Assembly (NCBI GenBank): GCA_963806155.1
Contig: CAWDXC010000018.1
Location: 112,605-176,604, forward strand
Direction of reading: 5' to 3'
DNA from: an uncultured Actinomycetes bacterium
GTDB taxonomy: Bacteria; Actinomycetota; Thermoleophilia; RBG-16-64-13
Length of the DNA stretch: 64,000 nt
Positions within the stretch are counted from its first letter, which is position 1; each line of letters begins with the position of its first letter. The notes under the pieces were generated by a model. That model saw only the letters and a list, made by a program, of their open reading frames with translations. It did no database searches and was not told where the DNA came from. Positions 4,889 through 46,005 of this stretch are shown piece after piece. A program made the position numbers and the translations under genes.

Positions 4889-4911
4889 AGGGATGCCGGG
4901 CAGACTGGCTG

Positions 4912-14035: not shown

Positions 14036-14064
14036 TTGACTTTATTAATTGCTCGCCCCATAAT
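14036..14064 (+). promoter_or_regulatory. Sigma70/SigA-type promoter
   Basis: TTGACT-17 bp-CATAAT, 34 bp upstream of the DUF2089 start, which has a GGGAGG RBS. Confidence 0.65.
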
Positions 14065-14098
14065 GGCTAAGGATAGTGAATTACGGGAGGGCAAGCGT

Positions 14099-14458: not shown

Positions 14459-14736
14459 AAGTACCGCCCTATGCGCTGAGGGTGCGGGTAGCCGAGCGGG
14501 AACGCACCAAGTTCCGCATCTGGTTCCCGCTTTTCCTGCTTTGGCCTCTCATACTCGTCTTCCTCCTGCTGACGCTGATCGCCACCGTGGTCGTCGATGC
14601 TGCTCAGCTCATCGCGGGCCGGCGGCAGCGCTACACGCGCCTGGTGCTGGGATGCCTTGGGGTCGTCGGCGAGACCCGGGGCACAGAAGTCTTCATCCAA
14701 GACAAGGGCCGGACCGTCGCAGTGACTGTCCGCTGA
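14455..14736 (+). CDS. Small membrane protein
   Basis: ATGA-coupled to the DUF2089 gene; hydrophobic segment IWFPLFLLWPLILVFLLLTL. Confidence 0.7.
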   Translation: MKVPPYALRVRVAERERTKFRIWFPLFLLWPLILVFLLLTLIATVVVDAAQLIAGRRQRYTRLVLGCLGVVGETRGTEVFIQDKGRTVAVTVR

Positions 14737-18091: not shown

Positions 18092-19674
18092 CTAGGCGCA
18101 GGGAAGCACTTCGAACACGTGATAGCTCCAGGCCGGCATATCGAGATACAACCCCGGCTCCACCAGACCAGTACCTTCCCGTTTGTAGGTGATGTCGTCC
18201 AGCAGGTCGCGCAGCGTCCAGCGTTCTCCGGCCAGGTCGCTGAACGGCGGAGAGACGTAGCACTGACTCTGGTGGTCGGAGAAGTTGACGACTATCACAA
18301 ACCTGTCGCCCAGGTCGCCCCGCCACCCTTGGGCTACGAAGCACTCGTGGGTCCAGTTGCCGTCCCACGCCGGCCGGCACTCGAGGAGGCGCCACTTGCC
18401 CTCGCGCACCGCGGGGTTGCGCAGGCAGGCCAGGAGCGACCGGTAGAAGACCGCCAGTTCTTCGTCCACCGGCTCGAGCGGGCCGCCGGCACAGGTGCAC
18501 CGGGAGACGGATCTTGGCCCCTTCCAGCTGCCCCTGGTGGAAGAAGCGCAGCCCCGGGCAGAGGAAGGTGATGACCGCGGCCGCCTGGTGCTTCTCGAGG
18601 GCGAAGGTCGCCGCCGCCCGCGGCTCGTCGTGGTTCTCGAGGAATCGCGCCGAGTGCTCCTGGAAGTCCATGTGGGCGCGCAGGTGATCGCGCACGGTCC
18701 GGGACGTCGCCCTCCACCAGCCGGTCGTACAGCCGCTTGTCGTAGGTGTAGTCGAAGCCCTGCTGCTGCAGCTCCCACTCCAGGTCCCAGTAGACCTCGG
18801 CCATGAACAGGAAGCCGGGGTGGTCGGCCTTGATCTTCGCGATCGCGTCCGGCCAGAAGGGCTCGGTCGGTATCCCCCAGGTACGCTCGAAGACCTCGGG
18901 CAGGACGAGCATGGCCATGTCGCAGCGCACCCCGTCGCAGCGGTCGGCCACCCGGCCGAGTTCGGCGCGCATGGCCTCCCGCAGCGCCGGGTTGCCGTAG
19001 TCGAGCTGCAGGGTGTCCGGCCAGCCGTCGAAGTAGGGGTCGCGCCCGTAGGCCAGCACCGCGTCGCCCTCGCTCGGGGCTTCCGACGCGGCCGGGCCGC
19101 CGGGCGCACTCACACGGCAGTAGTTCTGCGGCTCGCGGGCGAGGTCTTCCTCGCGTGCCGCGGACGTAGTACTCGGGGTGCTGCGTCGACCCAGGGGTGG
19201 TCGGGTGCCGTGTGGTTGGGGACGAAGTCGAGGATCAGCCGCAGACCTCGCTCGTGCAGGCGCGGCCGCAGGCGCTCCGAGCGCCTCGTCGCCGCCCAGC
19301 GCCGCGGCGACCTCGTAGCCGGTGACGGCGAAGCACGATCCGCAGATGTCGTCCTCGGTCAAGGTCGGGCAGGACGCGGGCGAACTCCTCCCGCCACTGC
19401 CGGGTTGCTGCGCGACACGGCCCGCCCGGCGGCGCCCGTCTGCCAGACACCGAGGAAGTAGACCAGGTCGAAGCCCGCCTCGACCCATCGCGTCGAGGTC
19501 GGCGTCGGGCACGTCGTCCAGGGTGGCCGGGCGACCCAGCTCGCGGGAGAGCTCAGTCCAGCCAGGTCCGGGTGTTGACCTGGTAGAGAAGAGGGTTGCG
19601 ACCCGGTCGAGGCGCCTGCCGGCCGCCGCGCTCGGGACCGGCCGCGGCGCCGGCTCGGCTCCGGAAGCGCTCAT
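18092..19674 (-). CDS. Alpha-amylase family (GH13) glycoside hydrolase; frameshifted
   Basis: [56 protein letters not shown]. Confidence 0.85.
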
Positions 19675-24196: not shown

Positions 24197-26905
24197 ATGA
24201 GTACCAACGTCGCCATCCTACGTCCCAAGCTTCGGCCGCCCCGAGTGGGGCCGAACCGACTGGCGAGGCAAAGGCTGCTCGCGCGGTTGGACCAGGGGCT
24301 CACCGGGCCGTTCACCCTTGTGGCAGCTCCGGCGGGCTATGGGAAGACGACGCTGCTCGCCCAGTGGGTCAGCGGGCAAGATCGGCCCTCGGCCTGGCTC
24401 ACCTTGGACGAGGGGGACAACGACCCCGACCTGCTCTTGGAGGAGCTGGTGGCGGCGGTCAGGACTGTGTCTTCCGACTCCTGCCACGGCACCAAATCTC
24501 TGCTCGGCCGGCCCGCCCTTCCGCCGCTCGAGTTGCTGGTCCGGGAGTTCACAAACGACCTCGATGAGCTCGATGCGTTCATCCTGGTGTTGGACGACTT
24601 CCACAACCTCAAAGATTTGCATACCCTCGAGATACTCAGACGCCTGATCTATCAGCCTCCGCAATCGCTACATCTCGTCCTTTCCTCCCGGGCGGATCCG
24701 CTGCTACCGCTCGGCGCTCTACGTGGACGGGGCCTCCTGAACGAGGTGCGGGCGGCCGATCTGCGCTTCAGCTACGAGGAGGCGGTGGAGTATCTGGGGC
24801 ACGCATTCGGCCGTCCTCTGACGGACGCCCAGCTCTCTTCTCTGCTTGAGCGGACCGAGGGTTGGATCGCTGGCCTCCATCTGGCCGCCCTCTCTCTTCT
24901 GGGCCGCGAGGACATCGAGCAAGGCATCCGAGAGTTCGCAGGCAGCGACCGCTACGTCGCCGACTATCTCATGGACGAGCTCTGGGCCCAACTCGATCCG
25001 ACAGTCCGGAGCTACCTCATGGCCACTTCGATCCTCGACCGGCTGTCCGCCCCTCTGTGCCGGGCGGTCCTAGGTGAGGGGGCCATCGACTCCTTCGAGG
25101 GGCGACCGATGCTCGAGTGGCTGGAAGACTCGAACCTCTTCGTCGTCTCGCTGGACGAACGTCGGGAGTGGTTTCGCTACCACCACCTCTTCCGCGACCT
25201 CTTGCGTCGCTCGCTCCATGCTACTTCCTCCCCGAGGGACGTGGCCGCACTCCATATCCAGGCCGCCCGATGGCTGGGTGCCCGCGACCGGGTCGAAGAC
25301 GCTCTCGGCCACTTCCTTAGGGCGGAAAGCCCGGAGTTGGCCGCAGACCTCGTCGAGGCGCACCGCAGGGTCGCAATCGACGGGGAGCGATGGCGCGCTC
25401 TAGAGCGGTGGGTGGGCAAGCTGGGCCCAGACATCGTCGGCGGGCGCCCCTCGCTCGTGTTGATCCATGCCTGGCTGGCGCAACAGCGGGGGGACTATGC
25501 AGAGATGTCTCGCCACTGCCAGCGCGCCGAACAACTACTGGACCTTCGGGACGAGCCGCCTGGTGACGACGAGGCCCTCAGGGGAGAGATCGCCGGGTTG
25601 CGCGCGCAAACCAGCTATTGGCAGGCCGACGGCGAGAAGACCTTGGTCTATTCTCGCCAAGCGCTGAGCAGTCTTCCCCCCGACTATCGCCTCGCTCGGG
25701 CAACGGCCACGCTCTTCGAGGCTGCCGGCCTGCACCTGCTTGGTCAGAACCAAGCCGCTTTCGATGTCTTCCGTCGGGGCTCCTACGGAGAATACGGGAG
25801 AGGTCTCCATCCCCGGGCCATGATCGGGCTGGCCTTGATAGCTTTCGCCACCAGCGACGTCGACTACGCATACCGGGTAGCGAACCTGCTGCTGTCCCAG
25901 GCGATCGACGCTGGCCTGGAGGAGAGTGCCGGCTGGGCGCACTACTTCTTGGGACTGACCGCGTATCAGCGGAACGACCTCTCTGCGGCCGAAGCGCATT
26001 TCAGAGCCATCGACCCGTACGCATCGCACGTCGTCCCGGCCAGACAGAGCTCATATGGCTTGGCCTGGGTACGGCAGGCTCAGGGCAGACCAGACGAGGC
26101 TCTTGAGGCCATGGAGTTGATGGCATCCGTCGTTTCCGATCTCAATCTCCCCTTCGGTCAGGAGGTTCGGCTGCTACGGGCCCGGTTGGCCGCCCTGTCC
26201 GGTCGGCCCATCAGCGAGGTGGCCTTGGCGCGTAGCCTTCTTCCTTCGGAAGGTAACGGACTTCTCCAACTCAATATGTGCCACGAGCTCAGCGCGATCA
26301 GTGCCCTAGCGGTGCTGCTGATGGAGGGGAGCGACGACGACCTTGCTGCTTGCCAAGTGGCGCTGCGACGCCTGCTCGCGAGCGCAGAGACCACCGGCAA
26401 CTCCTTCCGCTCTGTGCAGTGTCTCATCCTGCAGGCGCTCATTCTTGACCGGCAGGACCGGAATTCCGAGGCCCTGGCCTCGCTGGCCCAGGCTGTGGAG
26501 TTGGCGAAGCCCGGTCGTCTCGTCCGGTTGTTCCCCGAGATGGGTGACCGGGTGCATGCGCTACTGCAGGCGCTCCAGGTTCGAGGGGGCAGTGACGCCT
26601 TCTTGGACGAGGTGGTCGCCTCGTTCACGGGGGAGGAGCTTCCGTCCGGCCACGCTTCTCTACCGCACGCGTCGGTCTCCGGCCGGGAATACCCGATCGA
26701 CACCCTTCTGACCAACCGCGAGCTTGATGTGCTGGAACTACTAGACCAACGTCTCAGCAATAAGGAGATCGCGAAGCGGTTGGTCATCTCTCCCGCCACG
26801 GTGAAGCGTCACACCCTCAGCATCTACCGCAAGCTGGGGGTGGGGAGCAGGCGCGAGGCAGCAGCGAAGGCACGGCACGTGGGGATCCTTTCAGGCTCCC
26901 GATAG
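24197..26905 (+). CDS. MalT-like STAND ATPase / LuxR-family transcriptional regulator
   Basis: KLRPP, APAGYGKTTLLAQW, AWLTLDEGDNDP, LVLDDFH, RTEGWIAGL, WFRYHHLFRD, LuxR HTH LTNRELDVL...SNKEIAKRLVISPATVKRH. Confidence 0.95.
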   Translation: MSTNVAILRPKLRPPRVGPNRLARQRLLARLDQGLTGPFTLVAAPAGYGKTTLLAQWVSGQDRPSAWLTLDEGDNDPDLLLEELVAAVRTVSSDSCHGTKSLLGRPALPPLELLVREFTNDLDELDAFILVLDDFHNLKDLHTLEILRRLIYQPPQSLHLVLSSRADPLLPLGALRGRGLLNEVRAADLRFSYEEAVEYLGHAFGRPLTDAQLSSLLERTEGWIAGLHLAALSLLGREDIEQGIREFAGSDRYVADYLMDELWAQLDPTVRSYLMATSILDRLSAPLCRAVLGEGAIDSFEGRPMLEWLEDSNLFVVSLDERREWFRYHHLFRDLLRRSLHATSSPRDVAALHIQAARWLGARDRVEDALGHFLRAESPELAADLVEAHRRVAIDGERWRALERWVGKLGPDIVGGRPSLVLIHAWLAQQRGDYAEMSRHCQRAEQLLDLRDEPPGDDEALRGEIAGLRAQTSYWQADGEKTLVYSRQALSSLPPDYRLARATATLFEAAGLHLLGQNQAAFDVFRRGSYGEYGRGLHPRAMIGLALIAFATSDVDYAYRVANLLLSQAIDAGLEESAGWAHYFLGLTAYQRNDLSAAEAHFRAIDPYASHVVPARQSSYGLAWVRQAQGRPDEALEAMELMASVVSDLNLPFGQEVRLLRARLAALSGRPISEVALARSLLPSEGNGLLQLNMCHELSAISALAVLLMEGSDDDLAACQVALRRLLASAETTGNSFRSVQCLILQALILDRQDRNSEALASLAQAVELAKPGRLVRLFPEMGDRVHALLQALQVRGGSDAFLDEVVASFTGEELPSGHASLPHASVSGREYPIDTLLTNRELDVLELLDQRLSNKEIAKRLVISPATVKRHTLSIYRKLGVGSRREAAAKARHVGILSGSR

Positions 26906-29091: not shown

Positions 29092-29153
29092 GCGACGAAC
29101 AGACGGCGAATGAAATCGCCCGGACTGTCCAAGTGACCAAAGGAGAAACGATC

Positions 29154-30844
29154 ATGAAAGTTGTCATCGTCGGGGGAGTGGCGGGAGGCGCGTCGTGCGC
29201 CGCGCGCCTGCGTCGACTGGACGAAAAGGCCGAGATTCTCTTGCTGGAGCGCGGTCCCTACGTGTCGTATGCCAACTGCGGACTGCCCTACCACATCGGC
29301 GGCGTGATCGAGAAGGAAGAGAGCCTTCTGGTGGCGACGGAACAGACCTTCCGGGCCGTGTTCGCGATCGATTGCCGGACCCGCTGCGAGGTGACCGGCA
29401 TCTCGCCCGAGGCGAAGACCGTGGAGCTCAAGAACCACGAGACCGGCGAGGTCACCACCGAGAAATACGACAAGCTCGTGCTTTCGCCCGGGGCGGCTCC
29501 CATCCGTCCGCCCCTACCCGGGATCGACCTCCCGGGGATCTTCTCGGTGAGGACCGTGCCGGACGCGAGGGAGATCCGGGAGTGGCTCGAACGGGATTCG
29601 AGCGATCTGTCCGTGGAGAACACTTCCGCCGGATTCAAGCCGGTGGGCACAGCCAAGCGGGCGGTGGTGGTCGGCGGCGGATACATCGGCCTCGAGATGG
29701 CGGAGAACCTGGTCCATCGCGGGCTCGAAGTGACGGTCGTCGAGATGCTCGATCAGGTCATGGCCCCGCTCGATCCGGAATGCGCCCGGCTCGTCGAGCG
29801 CCACCTGGAACAGCCACGGCGTCCGTCTCGCGCTGGGTGACGCGGTGGCCGGATTCGAGCAGACCGCCGGCGGCTCGCTCGAGGTTCTCACGAAATCCGG
29901 CAAGGTGCATCCGGCGGACATCGTGATCCTGGCCATCGGCGTGCGTCCGGAGACCGCGCTCGCGAAGGCGGCCGGGCTCGAGATCGGCGAGCGCGGCGGC
30001 ATCCGCGTGGACGAACACATGCGCACGAGCGACCCGGACATCTTCGCCGTCGGCGACGCCGTCGAAGTCAAGGACTACGTCACCGGCGAATGGTCCCTCA
30101 TCCCCCTGGCCGGGCCGGCGAACCGGCAGGGCCGGATCGTGGCCGACGTGATCGCCGGGCGGGACTCCCGCTTCCGCGGCACCCAGGGCACCTCGGTCAT
30201 CGGGATCTTCGGAGCCACGGTCGCCATGACCGGCGCCAACGAGAAGATGCTCGTCCGGCTGGGCGCAGACGGACTTCGAGAAGATCTATCTCTTCCCGAA
30301 TTCGCACGCGGGGTATTACCCGGGCGCCAAGACGATCGTGCTGAAAGTCATCTTCCGCAAGTCCGACGGGCGTCTCCTGGGGGCGCAGGCTCTCGGCCTG
30401 GACGGCGTCGAGAAGCGGATCGATGCCCTGGCCATGGCCATCCAGATGGGCGCCACGGTCTACGACCTGGAAGAGTCCGAACTCTGCTACGCGCCCCCGT
30501 TCGGGAGCGCGAAGGACCCCGTCAACTTCGCGGGGATGGTCGCCGCCGACGTCCTCCGGGGCGACATGCCGCTCGCTCACTGGGCCTCGGTGGACGGGCA
30601 GTTCCTCCTCGACGTGCGCAATCCGGCGGAGCTCGCCGCGGAGCAGGTGGAGGGCGCGGTCAACATACCGCTGCCGCAGCTCCGCGCACGCCTGGGCGAA
30701 CTGCCCCGCGACCGCGAGATCCTGGTCATCTGCCGTTCCGCCCAGCGCGCCTACTACGCGACGCGCATCCTTCTGCAGAACGGGTTCAAAGCCAGAAACC
30801 TCTCCGGAGGCATGATGTCGCGTTCGATGCTCGGGACGAAGTGA
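29154..30844 (+). CDS. CoA-disulfide/persulfide reductase with C-terminal rhodanese (Cdr/Npsr-like); frameshifted
   Basis: GGVAGGASCAARLRRL, SYANCGLPY redox Cys, GGGYIGLE, IFAVGDA, PLAGPANRQGR, YAPPFGSAKDPVN, rhodanese LLDVRN...VICRSAQRAY. Confidence 0.9.
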
Positions 30845-30909
30845 AATGAAAGGTCAATGGATAACCCACGACGCGGCCACTAGCGCAGCGAAGCAAAGGA
30901 GAAGGCAAC

Positions 30910-33329
30910 ATGAGTAAAGACGATGTGAAGACTTCCACGGGTCGGGTGAAGGTCGATACCGCACGCATCGATCGGCTGAAAGAACAACTCAGGAGCACTC
31001 CTGCTGAGGTCGATTTCGAGCGGGTCAGGATCATGGAGGAGGTGTACGATGACACTGCCGGCTACCAGCAGATCATCTGCAGAGCCAAATTCATGGCAAC
31101 CCTGCTCGAGAGGAAAGCGTTGTACATCGACGACAACCTCTTTGTGGGCAGCATGGCAAGCACCGTCAATGGCATCTACACCTATCCGGAATGGCAAGTG
31201 GATTGGATGAAAGAGGAGAATACCGTTGAGAGAAGTGTAAGACCCCGGAAGACCGGAAGGCGAACGAATGGGCGCTCGAATACTGGGACAAGCGTGCGCT
31301 GAAGCCCCGCACGCTTGAGATATTCGAAAGGAAGTATGGTTTTGATCCGCGCCCTTCCTATGCTTCCGGCAATGTCATTAGTTTCTTTGACTGGCCCGGT
31401 GGCGGCGGCAACCTGGACTATCCCCGGGTGTACAGGAATGGGCTTGCCAGCATGATCAAAGAGGTCGAGGAGCGAGAGGCGGCCCTCGAGATGCGGCTGC
31501 CGAATGCCGACAAGTTCGCCTTCTATGAAGCCAGTCTCATTGTCATGAGGGCCTTTATTCGCCTGGCTCACCGTTATGCTGAACTGGCCAGAGAGATGGC
31601 GGCAAAAGAGACGAATCCCGTCCGCAAGCAGGAACTGCTCGACATCGCCGAGATCTGCGAATGGGTGCCCGAGCATCCGGCCCGCAACCTGAGAGAAGCC
31701 ATCCAGTGCCACTTCTTCTGTCACATCGTCTCGGAGATCGAGCAGGTGGGTTGCGGCTATTCTGAGGCTTACCTGGGCCAGAACTTCGAGCCGTTCTATC
31801 AGGCCGACAAGGCTGCCGGTCTGATCGGATATGACGAGGCAGTCTTCATGTTCGAGAACCTCGTCATCAAGCTGAACGAGATCGGCTATTACTATGGCGA
31901 GAAGGTCGCCTTGCAGAACTCTGCCGACCTGGGTCAGAGCATCTCGCTCGGAGGCTATACCGAGGATGGGGATGATGCCACCGCAGAAATGGATTATGTG
32001 ATCCTGGATGCATGCAACTACCTTCACTTGCCACAGCCTCCGCTGACGTGCGTCTACACGGAGAGAATGAGCGGCAAATTCCTGGAAAAGGTCCTGGATG
32101 TGATCGGCACCGGTATCGGCATGCCTCAGTTCGTGAATGGCGATGTGATGGTGAAGCGCGCCTTGAATCTGTTCGCTGACTCCAAGAAGGGCCTCACACT
32201 CGAAAAAGCCAGACGCACCGCTATCGGCGCCTGCGTGGGTTCATACATTCCCTACGAAACAGGTCACCCGGTGGAAGGGCAGCCCAACCTGGGGAAGGTC
32301 ATCGAGTTGACGATGAACGATGGCTTCGATCCCCGCACCAAGCAGCAGGTCGGACCCAAGACCGGGGATCCCGAGACCTTCAAGACCTTCGAAGAACTCT
32401 ACGCGGCATTCCAGAAGCAGATAGATTTCAATGAGGAGGTCCTCCGCCGGGGTGCATGGATCGCCAGCATGCTGTGCGCTGACTTCCTCCCGACTACCTG
32501 GCGCTCGCTCCTGACCGGGGGCTGCATTGAAACCGGCACCGAGGTCTGGAATGGCGGAGCCAATTACTACACAACTGCGCAGATCGTTGTCGGTGGCGTT
32601 GACGCCGCCAACTCGCTGATGGCGGTGAAAAAGCTGGTCTATGATGACAAGAAGATCACCATGGCCGAACTGAAGAAGGCGCTGGCCGCCAACTTCGAGG
32701 GATACGAGAATGTACGCAAGATGTGCTATGAAGCTCCCAAACATGGCAACGACATTCCTGAAGTGAACAAGCTGACTCGTAGGGTGTTCAATAGTATCTA
32801 TGACGCTTTCCAGAAGGTAGATGGCGGCGGCAACTACATCAGCCAGGACATCAAATCAGCGCCGGATGCCTATACCAAGAGCATCCACAACCTGATGGGG
32901 CTGGTGACGGGCGCGCTGCCGAACGGTAAATATGCCGGGGTTGCACTCACCGATGGAAGTCTGTCGGCCATGCCGGGCACCGACGTCAACGGACCTACCG
33001 CGTTGGTGATGTCTGCGGCGAAGAGTCAGGATGCCATCAAGTACACCGCAACGCACATGAACATGAAATTCCCGCCCGATCAACTGAAAACACGCAAGGG
33101 CCGGGATAACGTGCTGAATCTTGTCAAGACCTATTTTGACAATGATGGCTATCACATTCAGTTCAATGTCCTGGACACCGCAATACTCAGGGACGCACAG
33201 AAGCACCCTGAAAACTACCGCGACCTTGTGGTTCGGGTGGCCGGTTTCAGCGCTTTCTTCACCAAACTGGCCCCGGGTGTGCAGGATGAGGTCATTGCTC
33301 GTACCCTGCAGAGTTTCGGCACGAACTGA
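30910..33329 (+). CDS. Glycyl radical enzyme (PFL superfamily) of uncertain specificity; one frameshift near 31235
   Basis: C-terminal HIQFNV..LRDAQKHPENYRDLVVRVAGFSAFF (glycyl radical); Cys loop AIGACVG; CEWVPEHPARNLREAIQ; about 800 aa when joined. Confidence 0.92.
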
Positions 33330-33377: not shown

Positions 33378-33452
33378 ACACCTGCTGATCGCGCGCGACG
33401 CGAAGACGTGCACGATCAGAAGGAAGGTACATCATGATTACGGAAGTAGGTC

Positions 33453-34613
33453 ATGCCAGTCTTCCTGAGACGGATCGCCATCATGGTGGGCGCCGGCTTC
33501 GTTCCCGGCATGAACGCCGTGGTGATGGGCGCGGCCCTGGCTGCGGGCAAACTGGGATGGGAGATCGTCGGCATCCGCGATGGCTTCGACGGGCTGCTGC
33601 ACCCGGATCGCTACCCCGACGGCGGGCTGGTGACCCTCAGCCCCCAACTGGTCGAGAACCTGGATCCGGCCGCCGGGGGCATCCTGGGCCAGTCGGCGCT
33701 GGGTCGATCCGTTTCATGTCCGCACGGTCGACGAAGACGACATGGTCGAGGAAGTGGACATGTCCGACGAGCTGCTGAGAGGGCTGCAGGCGGAGCAGAT
33801 CGATGCGGTGATCTCCGTCGTCGGCGGCCGCGGGCTGAGCATCCTCTACAAGCTCCATCGCAAGGGGCTCAACACGGTGTGCATCCCCCGCTCGATCGAG
33901 AACGACATCGCCGCCACCTCGGTGTCCTTTGGCTTCAACAGCGCCCTCAGCTTCACCATCGAGATGCTCGACCGGGCTCGTCAGGCGGCCCAGTCTGCCC
34001 GCAAGATCGCCGTGGTGGAGGTCCTGGGCGAGCAGGCCGGATGGATGGCGCTGCAGGCCGGCATCGCTGTCGGCGCCGATGCGGTGCTGATTCCCGAGAT
34101 CCCCTGCGACCTGCAGACGGTGGCCGCGCGGTTGAAGGAAAAGATGACACCCAGGCGGCCGTACGGGCTGGTGGTGGTGGCCGAAGGGGCGAAGCTCGGT
34201 CGATGACCCACAAGCCCAGGCAGAAGCCATCCTCGCTCAAGGCTTCCTGTCGCCGCTGGCAACCGGCGAGGCCAGCGACCACGTCATCCAGCGATCGGGC
34301 CAGGCCGCCGAGACCGTGGCCAGCAGGCTGCAACTGCTGATCGCCGAGGAAACCCAGCCACTCGTCCTGGGTCTCTGGGTCAGGGGCGGCGCCCCCACCG
34401 CCGTCGACCGCCAACTGGGGCTGGCCTACGGGGCCGGGGCGGTACGGGCCGCTGAACGCCGGCAAGAACGGGGTGATGGTGGCTTTCGTGCCGCCCGACA
34501 TCAAGTTCGTGCCGCTGGCGGAGGCGATCAACAAGGTCAGGACCGTGCCCGCGGACAGCGAATTCGTGCAGATCGCCCGCTCGCTCGGCATCAGCCTGGG
34601 GAGGGAACTATGA
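33453..34613 (+). CDS. Phosphofructokinase (PfkA)-fold protein with substituted catalytic motifs; frameshifted
   Basis: RIAIMVGAGFVPGMNAVV, GIRDGFDGLL, VVGGRG, IPRSIENDI, SFGFNSAL, VVEVLGEQAGWMAL, ADAVLIPEIP, VVVAEGA, LGLWVRGGAPTAVDRQLG. Confidence 0.85.
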
Positions 34614-35550
34614 ACACCCCATCCACCAATCAATCCGGCTCTGACCGGCATCGTTCTCAATATCCAGCGCTATTGCAGCCATGACGGTCCGGGCATCCGC
34701 ACCAACGTCTTCCTCAAGGGCTGCTCGCTGCGCTGCAAATGGTGCTCCAATCCCGAAAGCATCCACCCCAAGCCGGAGCTGGCCTACGACCCCCAACATG
34801 TGCATCGGCAAGAAGGCATGCGGCCTCTGTCTGAAGCCGCCCTTCCCGAAGGCGCTTTCTACGTCGTCGAGGGCGCCGACGACAAGGTCAGGGTCAACTG
34901 GGATCTGGCCACGGACGTCGACGAGGCGTTGGTCTCGCTCTGCCCGACCAACGCGCTGGACATGTACGGCAAGACGGATGACCGTCGACGAGGTGCTGGA
35001 CGAGGTGGAGAAGGACGCTTCCTTCTACCGCAATTCCGGCGGCGGCATGACCCTGAGCGGCGGCGAGTGCCAGCTGCAGCCCGACTTCGCCGCGGCCCTG
35101 CTGGCAGGGCGCCCACGAGCGCGGCATCAACACGGCCATCGAAACGGCCTTCAACGTGCCCTGGTCTTTCTGCGAAAAGGTGCTGCCCCACGTCGATACG
35201 GTGCTCCACGACCACAAGCTGACCATCCCGGAGCGGCACAAGAAGTGGACCGGCGTGAGCAACGAGCGCGATCCTGGCGAACATCAAGAAGGCCTACGAG
35301 ACCTTTCCCGACATCGACTTCATCGCCCGCACGCCGCTGATTCCCGGCGTCAACGCCGACGAGGAGCACATCCGGGCGGTCCTGGCGTTCATCCGCCCCT
35401 ACAAGAACGTGATCGACTACGAGCTCTTGCCCTATCACCGCTTTGGCCTGGGCAAGTACGAGAGCCTGGGCGTGGTGTATGAGCTGGACGACTACAAGAC
35501 GCCGTCCGACGAGCTGGTCGCGCACCTGCAGGCCAAGGAGGGCGGGATGA
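34610..35550 (+). CDS. Glycyl-radical activating enzyme (radical SAM); frameshifted
   Basis: [35 protein letters not shown] (CxxxCxxC), [36 protein letters not shown]; ATGA-coupled to the PFK-like gene. Confidence 0.9.
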
Positions 35551-36855
35551 ACACTGACAACCTGATTACGGCCGAAGAATTGGCCGCGCGCCTCAAGATG
35601 GCCGCCGAAGGCATGAAGAAGAAGCCCGGCTTGATGAAGTCCACCGTCGGCTACATGGAACTGGTCCACAAGTACGTGGAGCGGATCGTCACGGCCAAGG
35701 AGAAGGGCAAGTTGGTGGTCGACCCACGGCACCCAGCAGCCCCTCGAGATCTACGAGGCGATGGACGTGGTGGGCGTCTTCAACGAGTTCTGGGGCGTCA
35801 TCTCGGACGTCGTGAAGGTGGAGTCCGTCCCCGAGGCCTTGAGCATCTCGCCGTCGACCGGCACGCCGAAGGAGGTCTGCTCGTTCTTCCGGAACATGGA
35901 CGGCCTGATGCACGCCGGCAAGTGGCCCAAGACGGACTGTCTTTCTCTACGCCACCTCCTCGTGCGACAACGTCAAGGCCTTCCACACGCTGGGCCGGCG
36001 CTACGGCATCCCCGACTTCGGCATGGAGCGGCCCTACCACCCGTTCACGCCCCAGGCGATGGAGCACTGGAAGAACGAGCACAAGCGGCTGATCGCCTTC
36101 CTGGAGGAGCAGACCGGAAAGAAGCTGGACTACGACCGCCTGAAGGAGACGGTGCGCCTGTCCTACCGTCTCACCGAGCTCAGCCCTCGAGATCGACGAT
36201 CTCGTCGCCCATGTCCCGACGCCCATGTCCGCCGAATGCTTCGGCGGCGTGCTGCTGGCGCTGCGCCTGATGTGCGGGACCCAGGAGGCCGTGGACTTCC
36301 TGGAATGCGCTGAAGGCGGAGCTCCAGGAGCGCGTGGACAACGGCATCGCCGCCGTCAAGCCGGAGCGCTTCCGGGTGATGTGGAGCAGCTTCACCCCGT
36401 TCTGGGACACCGGCGCTCATGGCCTTCATGCAGCAGAAGTACGGCGCGGTCTCGGTGTGCGAGGTGCTGTCAGCGCTGGCGCGGGGAGGCGAACTGGCTG
36501 CTCGATCCGGACGATCCGCTGGGCAACCTCGCCTACCGGACCCAGCTCGCACCCGGCAACTGCCAGTACTCGCCCTCGATCGACTGGGCCGCGCAGGTCG
36601 TCGAGCAGGCCCGCAAGTTCAAGGCGGACGGGGCGATCTTCAACAACAACTGGGGCTGCAAGCAGGCTGCGGGCCTCGGCCCGATCGTCAGGGACGAGCT
36701 GCTGCGTCACATGCAACGTGCCGACGCTCACGCTCAACGTGGACGTGATCGACGCCACCTTCACCAGCCGGGCCGAGGTCGAAGCCCAGCTGGACAGCTT
36801 CTTCGAGATGATCGAGGCGAGCAAGGCCTACCAGGAAAGGAGGGCAATCGCATGA
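35547..36855 (+). CDS. 2-hydroxyacyl-CoA dehydratase / class I benzoyl-CoA reductase subunit (O/BcrB-like); frameshifted
   Basis: AAGGAGG RBS; EVCSF, SCDNVK, LIAFLEEQTGKKLDYDRLKE, KADGAIFNNNWGCKQ, PTLTLNVDVID, QLDSFFEMI. Confidence 0.8.
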
Positions 36856-38005
36856 ACACGCCACTGCAAAGCTCTGAACGAAATGCAAAGGCTGACCTCT
36901 CCGTTCCCGGAGAGCGTCACCGTCAAGGACTGGAAGGCCGCGGGCCAAGAAGGTGATCGGCTGGGTCAACCCCTACGTGCCGGAGGAGATCATCTACGCG
37001 GCCGGGATGCTGCCCTTCCAGGTCACCGGCAACAACGAGCCGGTCCAGATGCAGGGGGCCGAGGCCTACATCCTCGTCCAACTCCTGCTCCTACATCCGC
37101 ACCTGCTGGCAGCTGCAGCTCGACGGCAAGTACGGCTTCCTGGACGGCCTGGTCTCCTCCAGCATGTGCGACCAGGACAAGCGGCTGTACAGCGTGTGGG
37201 AGTACTACCAGAAGCTGCCCTACATGGACATCCTCTACGCGCCGCGCAAGCGCGACGAGGAGGCGGTCAAGCTGTACCTGGCCGATCTCGAGGACTTCAG
37301 GGACCGGCTCTCCCAGTACGGGCTGAGGCGGATCCCCGACCGGGACATCGCCGACGCGATCCGGGTCTACAACCGGGGACGCGAGCTCATGCACCAGCTC
37401 TACGAGCTGCGCAAGCGCGATCGCCCGCCGGTCACCGGGGCCGAGGCCCTGGAAGTGAGCAAGGCGGCCGCGCGCCTGCCGCGCGAGCGGTTCAACGAGC
37501 TGATGGAGCAACTGCTCGACGAGATCCAGCGCAGCGGGCGCGAGATCAAGAAGTCCCGGCGCCTGATGGTCATCGGCAACGACCTTCACAACGCCACCCA
37601 GATCGCCGCGCTCGAGTCGCTGGACGCGGTGGTGGTCGTCGACGAGATGAACTGCGGCATCCGCTACGCCTGGGGACAGGTGGACACCGCAGCTGCCGCC
37701 GATGGAGGCGCTGGCCCGCTACTACGTGCTGGGCCGTCCGGTCGACATGCACACCTGGAATTCCGACGGGCGACTCGAGTTCATCGGCGAGATGGCCGAG
37801 CAGTACAAGGTCGACGGGATCGTGTCCGAGATCGTGCGCTTCTGCACCTACAACGGCTGGGACAAGTTCGATCTCAAGAAGCAGATGGAAGCAGCGCGGC
37901 ATCCCGATCCTGGAGATCGACCTGGAGTACGGCCACCCGGCGGGAGCGCAGGTGAAGATCCGCGCCGAGGCGTTCATGGAGATGCTGGAAAGCCGGGCCA
38001 GTTAG
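36852..38005 (+). CDS. 2-hydroxyacyl-CoA dehydratase / class I benzoyl-CoA reductase subunit (N/BcrC-like); frameshifted
   Basis: IGWVNPYVPEEIIYAAGMLP, SCSYIRTC, MCDQ, VVVVDEMNCGIRY, YKVDGIVSEIVRFCTY, GIPILEIDLEY..AQVKIRAEAFMEML. Confidence 0.82.
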
Positions 38006-38034
38006 CCCGGCGGCCACAGAAAGGAGAACAGAGT

Positions 38035-38837
38035 ATGGCTGTCGTTGGAATTGACCTGGGATCGCAGTCCACCAAGGTGGTGATCCTGGAAGGCGACGTG
38101 ATCGTCGGCGGCGCCTCGCTGCAGACCGGGGAATCGGCGGAGACCGAGGCCCGGATGGCGGTGCAGGAGGCTCTGCGGCAGACGGGCCTCAAGCGCGAGG
38201 ACCTGAAGGCCGCGGTGGCGACCGGCACCCTCAGCGTGCCCGTCACCGCGGCCGTGCAGCGAAGCAACGCTCGGCGGCGAGTTGCATCGCCACGGGAGCC
38301 TACTTCCGCTTTCCCCAGGCGCGGACGGTCCTGTATATCGGCGCCGACAGCTCGATGGCCATCCGGATGTCGGCCGATGGCCAGGTCGAGGACTCGGTGA
38401 AGAACGAGCGCTGCGCGGTGTCCTCGGGGGCGCTGCTGGACATCGTGAGCCGCATGCTGGAAATCCCGGTGGAGGAGTTGGGCCCGCTGTCGCTGCAGGC
38501 CACCGCCCCGCAGACAGTGTCCAGCCGGTGCGTGGTCTTCGCCGAGGGCGAGATCCTGTCCTTCATCCACAAGGACCCGCCGGTCCCCGTTCCCGATGTG
38601 CTCGCGGGCGTGAACCAGTGCATCGCCGACGGCCTGTGGGGGATGGTGCAGAAGGTGGGCGTGCCGTCCGAGCTGCTGCTGTGCGGCGGGGTGGCCCGGA
38701 ATGTGGGCATCGTCAAGGCGATCGAAGCCCACCTGGGCAAGCCGGCGCTGGTGCCGCCGCAGCCGCAGTACGTGCGGGCACTGGGCGCGGCCGTGTTCGC
38801 CCGCCAGCTCCAGCAGGAAGGAGGTGCGTCATGCTGA
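38035..38837 (+). CDS. BadF/BadG/BcrA/BcrD-type (ASKHA) activator subunit P-like, degenerate ATP motifs; frameshifted
   Basis: GIDLGSQSTKVVIL, KNERCAVSSG, SSRCVVFAEGE, CGGVARNVG, ALGAA. Confidence 0.82.
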
Positions 38838-39691
38838 CGATGGGAATCGACATCGGTTCGCGCAGTTCCAAGTGCGTCATCCTCGACGACGGGCAGTTGC
38901 TGACCTACGGCAGCATCGAGACCGGCCCCAACATCGTCAAGACGGCCCAGGCGGTGGTGGAGGCGGCCGTCCACCGCCGCACCGGCCTGTGGGGCGAGTA
39001 CCGGATGCCGTTGCCCGACGTGAAGGTCGACCATCTGAAGATCGAGGACATGGCCTGCATCGTGTCGACAGGCTACGGACGCGCCGTCGTGCCCTTTGCC
39101 CATCGCGCCATCACCGAGATCAGCTGCCACTGCCGCGGAGCGCAGTGGTTCGTGCCCGGGGTCTCCACGGTCCTCGACGTCGGCGGGCAGGACAGCAAGG
39201 GCATCCGGGTCGGTGCGAAGGGCGAGGTCGCCGACTTCGTGATGAACGACAAGTGCGCCGGCGGCACCGGTCGCTTCATGGAGATCGTCGCGGAGGTGCT
39301 GCAGGTTCCCCTGTCCGAGATCGGTCCGCTGTCGCTGCAGAGCACGAAAGTCCTGCCGTTCAGCACGACCTGCGCGGCCTTCGGCCGGGGGGCGGCGGTC
39401 GCGATGCTGAAGGAAGGCGAGCGCAAGGAGGACATCCTGGCCGGGCTGCACGAGGCGATCGCCACGCGGGTCACGGCACTGGTCAGGAAGGTCGGCATCG
39501 CGGACAAGTTCGTGATCACCGGCGGCATCGGCAGGAATGTCGGGCTGGTGAGCAAGATCGAAGAGAGGCTCGACGGGTTGAAGGTCACCCTGCCGCAGGA
39601 ACCGATGATCGTCGGGGCCGTGGGGGCAGCCCTGTTCGCCCTCGACCGGGCCCGGAAGAAGAACGCTGATAAAGGAGCCGAAAAGCTTACC
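38831..39691 (+). CDS. BadF/BadG/BcrA/BcrD-type (ASKHA) activator subunit Q-like
   Basis: GIDIGSRSSK, STGYGR, TEISCH, LDVGGQDSK, MNDKCAGGTGRFME, STTCAAF, TGGIGRNVG, GAVGAALFA; as sequenced it reads through into the rhodanese remnant. Confidence 0.88.
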
Positions 39692-39859
39692 ATGAAAGCA
39701 AACGAGTTACTCAAACGCATCGAGGCCAAAACCGCGCCGGTCATCATTGACCCGCGCAGCGAGATCGAATTCAAGAAAGGCCACATACCGGGCGCCATCA
39801 ATGCCCTCGAGTTCGATATAGCAACGCAAACAGAGGAGACCATCGGTGGACACCGCTAA
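39692..39859 (+). pseudogene. Truncated rhodanese-domain remnant
   Basis: MKANELLKRI..VIIDPRSEIEFKKGHIPGAIN, then ends before the active-site Cys loop; overlaps the next start. Confidence 0.55.
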
Positions 39860-41009
39860 CAGTGGAAAAGATATCTACGAACGACTGGTGGATGCGCTGG
39901 ACGCACTTCCCAGCGGTTTCGCCAGAACGCCTTCAGGGGTGGAAACGAAGCTGATCAAAATGGCGTTCACGCCCGAGGAGGTCTCGCTTGCCGGCCAACT
40001 GAGCCGCACCCCCGAGACTGCTGCTGAGATCGCGCAGCGGGCCGGTCTTGACGAGACCCAGGCAACGGCGATACTCGAGAGCTTGGTGCCAAGACGTCTG
40101 GTTCGCCTGGACTCGCCTGGGATGGCCGCTCCCGGCCTGACCGCTCCGGTCGAGGGCGTGAGGAAATACCGGCTGGGCCCCTTTCTGGTCGGCTGGTACG
40201 AAGCCAGTATGCGGCTGCTGGACAAGGAGTTTGCCGAACTCTTCGAACAGTATGTGAGTGAGGGTGGAGGTGAGCGGATCTTCTCGCCGCGCCCTGGTGT
40301 GCTTGGCGTCGTTCCGGTACGGGGCTCGCTCAAGCCTGAGTTGATGGAGCTGATGGAGCCCCACCTTGATATAGACGCCCATTTCCAACGGCACGAACGC
40401 TTTCTCGTGATTGACTGCGTGTGTAAGAGGGAGAAGGCCACATTGCATGGCCACAGTTGCGAGCAGCCTATCAGGCGTTGTGGCTTTGTAGGGCTGCCGC
40501 CGCAGACTCCGCTTGGGCAAACCGTGCTTGACCGGCAGGATGCGTCAAAGCTTCTTGCTGAGCTCGGGCAGATGGGGCACGTTCAGCTCGCCTTCTATGG
40601 GTTCACCATGGGAGCGGACTCCCCTCAGTTTGTAGGAACGTGTAACTGCTGCTCGTGCTGCTGTGGGATATTTCAGGGCCAGAAGATGTCGGCCATAGAG
40701 GAAGGGCCGCAGAGATCGAATTACCGTGCCATCGTCGCTGCAGACAAATGTATCTCCTGCGGCGTGTGCATCGAGCGTTGCCCGGTGGACGCCATCGCTG
40801 ATGATGGCATGTCGGCGAAGGTGGAACGGGCAAAGTGCATCGGGTGTGGAGTGTGCGTGATCGGATGCGCATCTGATGCGATCGAGCTCGAGCCGGTATC
40901 TGCCGAGGAGTGGTTCCACGTTCCTTCCAGCTTTGCGGACTGGGAAGAAAGGCGCCTGCAGAATCTGGCTGGCGGAGGTAGTAACGGGCGCGACAGTGAC
41001 GACGTGTAA
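39846..41009 (+). CDS. 4Fe-4S dicluster protein with N-terminal wHTH-like region
   Basis: FTPEEVSLAGQL..ETAAEIAQRAG; DCVCK, TCNCCSCCCG, CISCGVCIERCP, CIGCGVCVIGC. Confidence 0.88.
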   Translation: MDTANSGKDIYERLVDALDALPSGFARTPSGVETKLIKMAFTPEEVSLAGQLSRTPETAAEIAQRAGLDETQATAILESLVPRRLVRLDSPGMAAPGLTAPVEGVRKYRLGPFLVGWYEASMRLLDKEFAELFEQYVSEGGGERIFSPRPGVLGVVPVRGSLKPELMELMEPHLDIDAHFQRHERFLVIDCVCKREKATLHGHSCEQPIRRCGFVGLPPQTPLGQTVLDRQDASKLLAELGQMGHVQLAFYGFTMGADSPQFVGTCNCCSCCCGIFQGQKMSAIEEGPQRSNYRAIVAADKCISCGVCIERCPVDAIADDGMSAKVERAKCIGCGVCVIGCASDAIELEPVSAEEWFHVPSSFADWEERRLQNLAGGGSNGRDSDDV

Positions 41010-43196: not shown

Positions 43197-43369
43197 TCGT
43201 CCTCCACTACGCCGGGGGAAGCCTCTGAGGGAGTCGCCTGTAGGAAACCGCCCCGCCGATTGTACATCCTCCCATATAGGTACTATGATGCGTCATTGGT
43301 TACTAATACTGTATCGGAAAGCCGCAGGTTGAGTATTCCGGTGGCGTCACAAGAGGGGAGCACTGAGCG

Positions 43370-44546
43370 ATGGGTACGATGACTATCAAGGGCAAGACGA
43401 TGCGTTCCGTGGATGTGGACTGGAACGAGTTCTACTACACCAACTGCCCCCTCGTGTCCCCCAGCAACGTCGACCAGGAGATCGGCTGGGTGAAGGAAGA
43501 GTTCAAGAAGATCGGCATCGCATACAAGTTCCTTCGCTCCACCCGCGAGAACGACTGGTACCCGCACTACGTCCACAACCTCGACAACCTGATGCGCTAT
43601 GGAGGCTGCTTCCCGGCCATCCACGTCCAAGCCGACATCCGCCGCACCCGGCTCATCGGGACGACGCATGTGTACGAAGGCGGCTGCATGCTGGTGCGCG
43701 CCCGGGACCCCATCTACCGCATGAAGGACCTGAAGGGCAAGAAGATCGGCCTCTCCAAGAGCCTGAACATCATCAAGAACGACTGGTGGCGCGTCCAGGA
43801 GGAACAGGGCATCGAGCTGATGCTCATGCTCAACGACATGACCCGCGATGACGTGGAGATCGTGGAGTTCCCCTACCCGGACGACTGGTACGACAACCCC
43901 GCGATGCTCGCCCCCATGGAGAACCCGTCGGAGCTGTGGCTCAAGCGCGACCACAAGCACGACCTGGCCTTCCGCCCGCTGGAGACGGCGCTGCTGAGGG
44001 GCGTCGTGGATGCGATCTACACCCAGACCGGACCCTTCCAGCATAGCCAGGAGCAGACGGGCAAGATCAAGGCCATCGAGAACCTGGCCAACTATCCGGA
44101 CTGGACCCTGCAGGGAGCCAATGTCCCGGCCACCTGCACGGTCAGCGATGTGGCGTGCGAGGAGCACCCCGAGGTGGTCGTCACCATTCTGAAGGGCCTC
44201 ATCAAGGTGGGGCGCTGGGCCAACGAGCACAAGCACGCCGCCGCGGCGATCCTCGACAAGCAGACCTTCTACCTGGACGTCGAGGACACCTACCGGAGCA
44301 TCCTGAACGTCGACCTGGTGCCCAGCCTGTCGCCCTATAACCTGGAAGCCCTTCAGATCAACAAGGACTTCATGCTGAGCCACGGCTACATCGAGCACGA
44401 CTTCGACGTGTTCGAGTGGGCCGCGCCGGAATTCATGGAGAAGGCGGCGGCAGGAGCTGCTCGAGGAAGAGTGGAAGAAGCGCAGCATGGCCAGGCTTCC
44501 CCAGCCGACCACGCTGGAGGAGGCCATGTCGGCGCGGCTCGGGTAG
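43370..44546 (+). CDS. DszB-like (SsuA/THI5-fold) protein, putative desulfinase; C-terminal frameshift
   Basis: YYTNCPLVS, HYVHNL, RYGGCFP, DLKGKKIGL, ALLRGVVDAIY, KDFMLSHGYIEHDFDVFEWAAPEF; no signal peptide. Confidence 0.7.
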
Positions 44547-44579
44547 TTGGTTCACTCCACTCTAGAAGGAGATGACTAC

Positions 44580-45083
44580 GTGACCGATCATCAAGTCCCC
44601 GAGAAGAAGCAGACGGTCCTGGGCCTCTACGTGACGGCCCAAGAAGCCTACGAGATGTGGGAGGTGGACCCCGACGGCGTCAACATCCTCGACGTCCGCA
44701 TTCCCGAGGAGTACCTGTTCGTCGGCCATCCGAAGATGGCGAGGAACATCCCCCTCCTCTTCGTGAGGTACGCCTGGGATGCTGCGAAGAACCAGCCGGC
44801 TGTGCGGCCGAACCCCGATTTCGCCTCCGCCGTCATGAAGGCCTTCGGTCCCGGCGACACGCTGCTGGTCATGTGCCGCTCCGGTGGCCGCAGCGCGCTG
44901 GCCGTCAACGGCCTGGCCAAAGCGGGCTTCACCAGGGCCTACAACATCATCGACGGTTTCGAGGGCGACAAGGTAGACGATCCGGGCAGCGCGTACCACG
45001 GCAAGCGGATGCGGAACGGCTGGAAGAACTCCGGGTCGCCGTGGACCTACGACGTCGATCCAGAGCTGCTTGTGGCTCGCTGA
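44580..45083 (+). CDS. Rhodanese-like sulfurtransferase
   Basis: ILDVRIPEEYLFVGHP, VMCRSGGRSA, YNIIDGFEG, NGWKNSGSPW. Confidence 0.88.
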   Translation: MTDHQVPEKKQTVLGLYVTAQEAYEMWEVDPDGVNILDVRIPEEYLFVGHPKMARNIPLLFVRYAWDAAKNQPAVRPNPDFASAVMKAFGPGDTLLVMCRSGGRSALAVNGLAKAGFTRAYNIIDGFEGDKVDDPGSAYHGKRMRNGWKNSGSPWTYDVDPELLVAR

Positions 45084-45120
45084 AGATAAATAGGCCGCGC
45101 CGGACAGTTGGGGGATCGCC

Positions 45121-46005
45121 ATGACGATCGAGTCGTTCTTCTCCGCCGTCGCCGCCTTGTCCGGTCTGCTGTTCGTCGTCGCCAGCATGCTGGGGACTGG
45201 GCTCAGCCTGACTGTGAGTCAGATCGTCCGACCGCTGAAGAACGTCCCCTTGGTGATCCTGGCGTTGGTCGCGAACTTCGTGCTTGTGCCGCTGCTCGCC
45301 TGGGGCATCACCAGCGCGATCACTCTCGACGAGCCTCTCAAGATCGGGCTGATCGTGCTGTCGACCGTGGCCGGCGCGCCCTTCTTGGTAAAGGAGATCC
45401 AGGCTGCCAAGGGGGACCTGGCTCTGGGCGTCGGCCTGATGTTTCTGATGATGATAGTGACCATCGCCTACGTGCCCCTCGTTCTGCCGCGGCTTCTTTC
45501 CGGCGTCGAGGTCGACGCGTGGGCGATCGCGAAGTCGCTGATCGTGACCATGCTCGTACCGATCGTGATAGGCCTGCTCTGGAAGTCGCATTCAGGGGAC
45601 AGCGCGAAGAACTGGGCGCCGATCATGAACAAGATCTCCGGTATCTCGCTGATCCTCTTGTTGGTGACCGGACTGGGCTTGAACATATCGAACATAATCA
45701 GCTTGATCGGTTCGCGTGGCTTCCTCGCTGTGATCCTCTTTGTCGTCGGGTCGTTCGTGATCGGGTTCGTGCTGGGCGGCCGTAAGGCGGCCACCCGCAG
45801 CGTCTTGGGTCTGGGTACGGCGCAGCGCAACGTGGCGGCCGCTATTCTCGTAACCAGTTTGAATTTCTCTGGAACGATGACGCTTCCGTACGTGCTGGTG
45901 GCCGCCATCCTCTTGCCGGTGATCTTGATCCCGGTGGCGCGACTGCTCGGCAAACGTGGCGGGGCGTCAGTCGCCGCAGGCGCCGGCAGCCAGGATCCGC
46001 AGTAG
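45121..46005 (+). CDS. Bile acid:sodium symporter (SBF)-family transporter
   Basis: SMLGTGLSL, ANFVLVPLLAW, AGAPF..AKGD, LGTAQRNVAAA. Confidence 0.85.
   Translation: MTIESFFSAVAALSGLLFVVASMLGTGLSLTVSQIVRPLKNVPLVILALVANFVLVPLLAWGITSAITLDEPLKIGLIVLSTVAGAPFLVKEIQAAKGDLALGVGLMFLMMIVTIAYVPLVLPRLLSGVEVDAWAIAKSLIVTMLVPIVIGLLWKSHSGDSAKNWAPIMNKISGISLILLLVTGLGLNISNIISLIGSRGFLAVILFVVGSFVIGFVLGGRKAATRSVLGLGTAQRNVAAAILVTSLNFSGTMTLPYVLVAAILLPVILIPVARLLGKRGGASVAAGAGSQDPQ

Follow-up and report, generated by a model that had tools for sequence, protein, structure and literature searches.

The general view is that a glycyl radical enzyme (GRE) needs no partner other than a radical S-adenosylmethionine (SAM) activase, except for small Fe-S subunits in three cases so far. 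In the hpdBCA operon the gene for such an extra subunit lies between those for the GRE and its activase. Here we examined a stretch of 64,000 nucleotides from an uncultured Actinomycetes bacterium (GCA_963806155.1, contig CAWDXC010000018.1, positions 112,605 to 176,604; this whole stretch is called the window below), in which a gene resembling phosphofructokinases (PFKs) also lies between a GRE gene and a GRE activase gene. The protein encoded by this PFK-like gene keeps the PFK fold; it is probably no longer a phosphofructokinase and instead a dedicated third component of a widespread GRE module, working with the activase.

According to the available part of a 2026 review (PMC13450708), only three GREs, HPAD, BSS and MASS, are known to have small subunits, and all of these subunits (HpdC, which is HPAD gamma, BSS beta and gamma, and MASS beta, gamma and delta) are HiPIP- or rubredoxin-like. 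Like these, the PFK-like protein would be an extra non-catalytic protein within a GRE operon, and it was encoded in such an operon in all 45 family loci. Unlike these small Fe or Fe-S proteins, which sit on the catalytic subunit, it has a PFK fold of 390 amino acids (aa) and no cysteine cluster motif, and its invariant neighbour is the activase. The word "phosphofructokinase" does not occur in the available part of the same review, and in the full texts searched (supplements excluded) we found no description of a PFK-like partner for a GRE or an activase.

Among kinases, the closest relatives are the "mixed"-group PFKs which depend on ATP or pyrophosphate (PPi) (TIGR02483, PF00365). The fold and domain order are the same and the nearest canonical members (P0140, P0149 and P0150) are 39-41% identical. 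However, the PFK-like protein is without the Mg-ATP Asp, the catalytic Asp (now Glu), Arg162, Arg171, Arg243 and His249, contains two inserts peculiar to the family (the region VDPFHVR...VEEVD, and a loop that is disordered and includes LKASLSPLATG), scores below the curated cutoffs and is encoded in GRE operons, while a canonical PFK is kept elsewhere in the genome. Catalytically inactive PFK paralogs serve as regulatory parts in other organisms, including the alpha subunit of plant PPi-PFK and the C-terminal half of eukaryotic PFK-1; here too catalytic residues are lost and the fold is kept under selection, putatively for a non-catalytic role. Those paralogs regulate a catalytic PFK, whereas the partner genes in our case are a radical SAM activase and a GRE, with no PFK adjacent.

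On the GRE side, the nearest systems are the 1,2-eliminases (HypD, glycerol/propanediol dehydratase, CutC and HpsG/HpsH). The family GRE is nearest to HypD (E 3.4e-119) and the best NCBIfam match of the activase is the HpsH-type model (348.7 bits). Unlike in these systems, the equivalog cutoffs were missed (474.9 vs 1100; 348.7 vs 430), the GRE has GACVG in place of the GCVE of HypD and glycerol dehydratase, the activase has 4 of the 8 auxiliary cysteines, and a PFK-like gene is absent from those systems as the available part of the review describes them.

Loss of kinase residues in the PFK-like family

The PFK-like gene occupies positions 33434..34613 of the forward strand. It was delimited by matches to PF00365 on three pieces (E 2.3e-9, 2.5e-41 for the middle piece and 2.9e-5) and by a frameshift-aware protein-to-DNA alignment to its ortholog in a genome of the same genus (G003, L017:9465-10679), an intact protein of 394 aa (P0001) which was our reference and which itself matches PF00365 with E 3.4e-63. 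The alignment covered residues 1-394, with 330 of 391 identical and no in-frame stops. An initial annotation of this DNA had started the gene at 33453; the true start is the ATG at 33434, which yields MITEVGHAS and matches the N-terminus of the ortholog. The ATGA overlap at 34610-34613 is real, as the TGA stop of the window gene (34611-34613) overlaps the ATG of the activase (34610-34612), and the gene does lie between a GRE (with PFL-like and Gly_radical domains) on one side and a GRE activase on the other.

The same annotation described a PfkA scaffold in which all of the key motifs are changed, and we found these motifs to be present and to align to GGD.PG, GGDG, TIDND, MGR and LGH.QRGG of solved PFKs. 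The changes, relative to the solved PFKs and to 16 canonical sequences, were GGD to AGF, GGDG to GGRG, TIDND to SIEND, MGR to LGE and LGHxQRGG to LGLWVRGG. The 16 canonical sequences came from a motif table of 25 representatives and mostly had GGGD, GDG, PKTIDND, EVMGR and LGHLQRGG, whereas the other 9, which we call degenerate, had variable residues at the positions of the Mg-ATP Asp, Arg171 and His249, and Glu in place of the catalytic Asp in 9/9.

Relatives of the reference protein formed more than 120 protein clusters with 76-100% identity and lengths of 374-399 aa, the intact orthologs having 385-395 aa. Where the source gave them a name, this was 6-phosphofructokinase (Joint Genome Institute, JGI), which is the automated pfkA label that had been predicted. 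An exhaustive search among 50%-identity representatives returned 377 proteins at E up to 1e-30, of which the first full-length ones were 69, 52, 52, 48, 43, 43 and 47% identical, and the list then merged into canonical PFKs at 35-41%.

In an alignment of 35 family sequences, the equivalents of Asp103, Arg72, Arg162, Arg171, Arg243 and His249 varied freely (residue numbers of the E. coli and Bacillus enzymes, mapped via PDB alignments). At the Mg-ATP site the position of Asp103 holds Arg, Gln, Pro, Ala or Ser and that of Arg72 holds Arg, Trp, Lys, Pro, Ser, Met or a gap, with GGRGLS in both the window and the reference protein. The T-I-D-N-D loop containing the catalytic base Asp127 is replaced by S-I-E-N-D, in which the Glu is at least 90% conserved and one member has Asp. 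Of the fructose-6-phosphate site (Arg162, Met-Gly-Arg171, Arg243, His249 and Arg252), only the Arg252 equivalent (Arg319) is conserved. Conservation of at least 90% was also found for Glu155-Asn156-Asp157, Arg319-Gly-Gly and many family-specific stretches, including DPF, SFGFNSALSFTIEMLD and LKASLSPLATG; the Arg at the Lys124 position and the Glu of VVAEG are kept as well. There is one invariant cysteine only (Cys149) and no cluster motif.

All of the NCBIfam PFK cutoffs were missed (TIGR02483: 252.1 vs 430.55; NF002872: 235.5 vs 253; NF010674: 224.8 vs 544). The fold is nevertheless that of a PFK: the AlphaFold model has a mean predicted local distance difference test (pLDDT) score of 83.3, and the best PDB matches found by Foldseek are bacterial PFKs (1zxx, E 7e-27, template modelling score 0.92 on target). 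The conserved LKASLSPLATG segment is within a low-confidence loop of the model, residues 258-288. An ordinary pfkA (6-phosphofructokinase, EC 2.7.1.11) was also considered for this gene and was rejected; a canonical PFK is found elsewhere in the window's genome (contig C8, 361.8 bits).

Linkage of the PFK-like gene to the activase

The linkage was counted in two sets: a protein-side set of 47 loci in species-representative genomes, and an activase-side set of the best 80 of 300 relatives. In the first, GRE, PFK-like gene and activase were found in that order in 45 of 47 loci, the exceptions being distant canonical PFKs (a Streptomyces PFK of 34% identity and a Bacteroides match of 23%). The activase came directly next in 42 of these 45, and the remaining 3 end at a contig edge before the activase. 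In the second set, the PFK-like gene lay 0-124 nucleotides (nt) upstream of the activase in 80/80 loci and a GRE was present in 78; in the other 2 the contig extends only ~500-900 nt beyond the activase on its upstream side, and this may be why no GRE was seen. The PFK-like gene often overlaps the start of the activase. Homologs with the changed motifs are consistently tied to a GRE and an activase in both sets. The loci with 49-57% identity (L048-L051, L058, L062 and L063) were GRE-linked too, and a distant degenerate member used as query (P0131) gave a single unrelated locus of 26% identity.

By accession, 21 contigs were common to both sets, leaving ~104 distinct loci (hand count), and the taxa labels in the record titles cover ~15 phyla (hand count). 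These titles include Actinomycetota, Acidobacteriota, Planctomycetota, Verrucomicrobiota, Kiritimatiellia, Bacteroidota, Cyanobacteria, Gemmatimonadota, Nitrospiraceae, NC10, Chloroflexia, Ignavibacteria, Aminicenantes, Hydrogenedentes, Calditrichia and alpha-, beta-, gamma- and "delta" proteobacteria. The cultured carriers (n = 2) were Flavihumibacter profundi KCTC 62290 and Phormidium sp. LEGE 05292.

We found that the GRE is exchangeable and that the invariant neighbour of the PFK-like gene is the activase rather than the GRE. Across the activase-side loci, the GRE was 30-87% identical to the G003 GRE, with 63-91% for the PFK-like protein and 74-90% for the activase; in two cyanobacterial genomes the GRE was ~30% identical, with 64-66% for the PFK-like protein and 72-75% for the activase. 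These two are a Microcoleaceae metagenome-assembled genome (MAG; L041, 6150-12110), where a GRE of 831 aa is followed by a short-chain dehydrogenase/reductase (SDR) gene, the PFK-like gene and the activase, and the isolate Phormidium sp. LEGE 05292 (L145), where a gap of ~0.9 kb, not annotated, comes before the PFK-like gene. Between GRE and PFK-like gene there is also a gene for an Fe-S protein (Fer) in L026, 2.6 kb in L030 and four genes in G003, and the activase still comes directly after the PFK-like gene.

The family activase has the CxxxCxxC motif as CSLRCKWC, invariant in 25 sequences, and its ortholog in G003 scores 317.8 for TIGR02494 (cutoff 174.35). It has four auxiliary-cluster cysteines in its ferredoxin-like insert (Cys64, Cys70, Cys73 and Cys111, in L017:10679-11629 and 24 orthologs), which is enough for one auxiliary cluster. 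Contig C3 of the window's genome serves as an internal control, since the GRE and activase pair encoded there is unaccompanied by a PFK-like gene; this PFK-less activase (C3:12122-13072) has the usual eight auxiliary cysteines.

A second PFK-like copy was found downstream in 10 of the 80 activase-side loci, and second copies lay 60-104 nt in front of the Fer gene in 12/13 rows. G003 has a second cassette (L018, G003 contig C8, 9192-12984) comprising a MalT-like regulator, a GRE split into three pieces and a 394-aa PFK-like gene, which adjoins an NAD-binding oxidoreductase and a glucose-6-phosphate dehydrogenase. A truncated third PFK-like copy follows the activase in G003.

Selection and origin of the clade

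The ratio of nonsynonymous to synonymous substitution rates (dN/dS) between the window gene and its G003 ortholog was 0.155 over 371 codons, well below 1 and indicating purifying selection, and the intact pair L019 vs G003 had an equal ratio (0.110/0.686). Amino-acid identity of the PFK-like protein across phyla was 63-82%. In the tree, the degenerate sequences formed a monophyletic clade (SH-like approximate likelihood ratio test: 100) nested inside the canonical PFKs, with a stem of 1.29 changes per column and end branches of 0.08-0.43 among close clade members; P0153 was the sole degenerate sequence outside it. This topology indicates one origin, with slow evolution after a single burst of change. 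A large pseudo-kinase that evolves slowly is here genetically tied to one activase clade in many phyla.

The window copy as assembled

The motif substitutions are real, yet the PFK-like gene is broken as assembled. The initial annotation held that the changes were in-frame substitutions, unlike the indels elsewhere; this did not stand, since four single-base +1 insertions, near 33461-33467, 33697-33702, 34198 and 34451, break the gene as they do its neighbours. In the DNA alignment to the G003 ortholog they appear as single extra bases on the window side. On three-frame translation the PFK-like reading passes to the second frame, from there to the third and finally to the first, and the motifs are spread over these frames: GAGFVPG in one, GGRG, PRSIEND and EVLGE in that of 33634-34203 and LGLWVRGG in a third. 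A single-frame translation from 33453 is PFK-like for ~80 residues; next come an arginine-rich out-of-frame stretch and a stop (34338-34340), after which the C-terminus reads well once more.

The frameshift-aware alignment to G003 gave 26 frameshifts in the operon: 1 in the GRE, 4 in the PFK-like gene, 6 in the activase, 7 and 5 in two HGD-D family genes, 1 in the first and 0 in the second of two ATPase genes and 2 in Fer. The activase (34610..35534, forward strand, identified by a Fer4_12 match) is in addition without its last 10 conserved codons and stop; it aligned to residues 1-307 of the 317-residue G003 activase (279/306 identical). Around 35520-35560 its frame runs on from residue 307, crosses an AAGGAGG-like site and enters the beginning of the first HGD-D gene. 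Neither the stop nor IIDEAFGR, which is invariant at the C-terminus, is present, and contigs from relatives carry the missing codons from 35535.

Short-read contigs of relatives from sediment and wetland metagenomes have one base fewer at 33461, 33697-33700 and 34451, and at the activase sites 34789, 34975, 35106-35107 and 35269. It should be noted that these contigs come from relatives rather than from the strain itself (mostly 88-95% alike), and therefore do not decide whether the extra bases of the window are errors. Among public sequencing runs we found none with this exact DNA (best share of sampled words 0.19). Some cover was seen in one metatranscriptome (X15), which is no proof of transcription.

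Two other counts were dropped. A hidden Markov model of the phase of GC content at third codon positions (GC3) had a noisy baseline (8.4-13 changes/10 kb in all contigs, 11-13 in the G003 loci); it was kept for local hot spots only and the frameshift-aware protein-DNA alignment took its place. The 4 stops inside plain tblastn high-scoring segment pairs fall in wrong-frame run-on past a frameshift. Elsewhere in the window, 3200-5800 and 18700-21300 contain only short fragmentary open reading frames (ORFs) of high GC3 with many codon-phase changes, and may be further badly assembled or broken genes. The second GRE of the window's genome (C3:18335-20714, 33% identical to the family GRE) is in two pieces, split near the N-terminus.

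Proposed role and alternative explanations

Because the kinase residues are lost and the gene always stands directly before the activase, the PFK-like protein probably assists in installing the radical and does not act as a sugar kinase. The reading of the initial annotation, a pseudokinase or altered-specificity kinase repurposed as a GRE partner, is supported by the linkage, the purifying selection and the unconstrained Mg-ATP and fructose-6-phosphate residues, and is refined in that the invariant neighbour is the activase. We propose that the PFK-like protein is co-produced with the activase and that the two act together, the former probably as a bound subunit which would stabilise, dock or gate the Fe-S activase while the glycyl radical is being installed, and which would not phosphorylate sugars. 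A paralogous copy may perform the same service for the neighbouring ferredoxin-like protein in some genomes. A fuller version of this proposal is doubtful: the PFK-like protein would be an obligatory third subunit, in a new class of machinery for glycyl-radical activation, which docks on the ferredoxin-like domain of activases short of one auxiliary cluster, its paralog would dock on Fer, and the remodelled cleft of the former active site (SIEND loop, Arg319) would sense a phosphorylated or sulfonated metabolite and thereby gate both the delivery of electrons and the installation of the radical, in bacteria of many phyla from soil and sediment.

The multimer check that had been suggested gave weak support for the pairing with the activase. 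The complex prediction scored 0.44, compared to 0.00 for the best of 3 controls, with runs agreeing in at least 67% of contacts and a partner pLDDT of at least 80. In calibration, 58 of 80 solved complexes attained this mark, as did 2 of 110 mismatched pairs; both of these mismatches but only 7 of the 80 solved complexes did so at scores of 0.60 or lower. Several points weigh against our proposal. Binding to the activase is suggested by gene order and by this weak prediction, which per the calibration would, in the absence of a strong prior, be wrong in most cases. The SIEND loop is conserved in altered form and Arg319 and the Glu of VVAEG are kept, so that a changed catalytic or ligand-binding function would fit the sequences as well. 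The window copy itself may be non-functional, given its four breaks and the loss of IIDEAFGR from its activase.

The PFK-like protein could instead belong to the catalytic GRE protein as a structural or regulatory subunit, as HpdC does in hpdBCA, and be no partner of the activase. Its location mirrors the hpdB-hpdC-hpdA order, and a GRE was in the same cluster in 45/45 family loci, usually directly upstream. The small subunits of HPAD, BSS and MASS bind the catalytic subunit, as the available part of the review states (PMC13450708). We nevertheless regard this as unlikely: adjacency to the GRE is broken in L026, L030, L041, L145 and G003, where the activase always follows directly, the GRE has diverged much further than the other two proteins (the identity ranges given above), and second copies precede Fer, not a GRE. 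No more probable, in our estimation, is a phosphotransferase that still functions but uses a new donor or a new substrate, such as a sulfonated or phosphorylated intermediate of the GRE pathway. This would account for the conserved S-I/V-E-N-D loop, in which nearly all members have Glu where the catalytic Asp would be, for the Arg at the Lys124 position, Arg319 (the Arg252 equivalent) and the Glu of VVAEG, and would suit both the organosulfur-like neighbours (SsuA-like, rhodanese and CoA-disulfide-reductase-like) and the best NCBIfam match of the activase, a sulfopropanediol dehydratase activase (below cutoff). However, the Mg2+ ligand Asp103 and the Arg72 equivalent are replaced by the range of residues listed above and GGDGS is without its Asp and Ser; with the Mg-ATP positions unconstrained, phosphoryl transfer from a Mg-nucleotide at that site is hard to reconcile. 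The coupling also tracks the activase across different GREs and does not track a metabolic enzyme.

A further explanation concerns the window only, namely that the PFK-like gene and the whole operon are a decaying pseudogene here and that the frameshifts are real mutations. The 26 frameshifts lie at 30.9-41 kb, 24 of them, almost all +1, in a hot spot of 4.9 kb (33400-38300, or 33.4-38.3 kb), while rpoB of the same genome is intact (1253 aa) and the problem is therefore local; the activase, short of 10 terminal codons and its stop, continues into the gene that follows, and the reads cannot be checked, no public run with the exact DNA having been found. Against decay, 23 of the 26 events are +1 and there is no in-frame stop across 3192 aligned codons, and the dN/dS of the window gene is the same as that of the intact pair. 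Furthermore, among 45 related loci (hand count) genes in several pieces were concentrated in contigs named "MFD...bin...contig_", which are presumably long-read assemblies (16/28, vs 1/17 others, a "tig" contig), and were found in 0 isolate or k-mer/NODE-named short-read assemblies. We therefore consider decay improbable, and it is very likely that the frameshifts of the operon, including the four in the PFK-like gene, are consensus errors of the assembly.

Returning to the proposed helper of the activase, the family-level finding of a new accessory component in a known kind of system is real, and what the window offers is one poorly assembled copy, which may also be damaged. If it is true that the PFK-like protein controls radical installation, this would be a new layer of GRE biology which can be tested in culturable hosts. 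Hundreds of entries named 6-phosphofructokinase are almost certainly not glycolytic, and this mislabelling distorts the metabolism reconstructed for MAGs from soil and sediment.

Gene neighbourhood and pathway context

The GRE of the window (30910..33329, forward strand) belongs to an uncharacterised family, with matches to PFL-like (E 4.8e-134) and Gly_radical (E 5.3e-29) and one -1 frameshift near 31237, and 654 of 774 residues are identical to the G003 GRE. It is below every NCBIfam equivalog cutoff. Its cysteine loop reads GACVG, compared to GCVE in HypD and glycerol dehydratase, and the usual Glu two residues past the Cys is absent (window 30910-33329; L017:2074-4404).

The activase is followed on the same strand by two HGD-D family genes, similar to the core of 2-hydroxyacyl-CoA dehydratase and benzoyl-CoA reductase (35547..38005; the G003 orthologs match PF06050), and by two BcrAD/BadFG-type ATPase genes (38035..39669; the G003 orthologs match PF01869). 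This four-gene block follows the activase in the window (35547-39669) and lies between the GRE and the PFK-like gene in G003 (L017:4611-9328). It is specific to the window's genus and was seen in none of the 45 loci from other lineages. Next comes Fer (39846..41009, forward strand), in which Pfam finds a 4Fe-4S dicluster domain and, weakly, a MarR-like N-terminus; it follows the ATPase genes and adjoins the cassette in many loci (18/45 by hand count).

Counts of the other recurrent neighbours were made by tblastn with the annotated neighbours as queries. This replaced an all-against-all clustering of stop-to-stop ORFs, which was polluted by antisense ORFs (5 of 10 representatives without a Pfam match). 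A CoA-disulfide-reductase-like flavoprotein with a rhodanese domain was found in 27/45 loci, its orthologs having 63-88% identity; in the window it is in two ORFs (29133..30849, forward strand, Pyr_redox_2), and the intact protein of L024 has Pyr_redox_2, dimerisation and rhodanese domains, with CoA-disulfide reductase as best NCBIfam match. An SsuA-like binding protein (20/45 loci; the L024 ortholog matches SsuA_fam), an SBF-family transporter (20/45) and a rhodanese (16/45) also recur near the cassette, and Pfam places all three at 43367..46002 on the forward strand of the window. Taken with the features of the GRE, these neighbours hint at a possible organosulfur substrate.

A MalT/LuxR-type regulator with TPR_MalT, GerE and AAA domains is encoded upstream of the cluster (24197..26905, forward strand). 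A SAM synthetase gene follows the cassette in 9/45 loci (e.g. L051, 12792-13970), and in L024 a PNP_UDP_1 nucleoside phosphorylase/nucleosidase gene does so (13948-14724); these neighbours hint at a local supply of SAM and at removal of 5'-deoxyadenosine.

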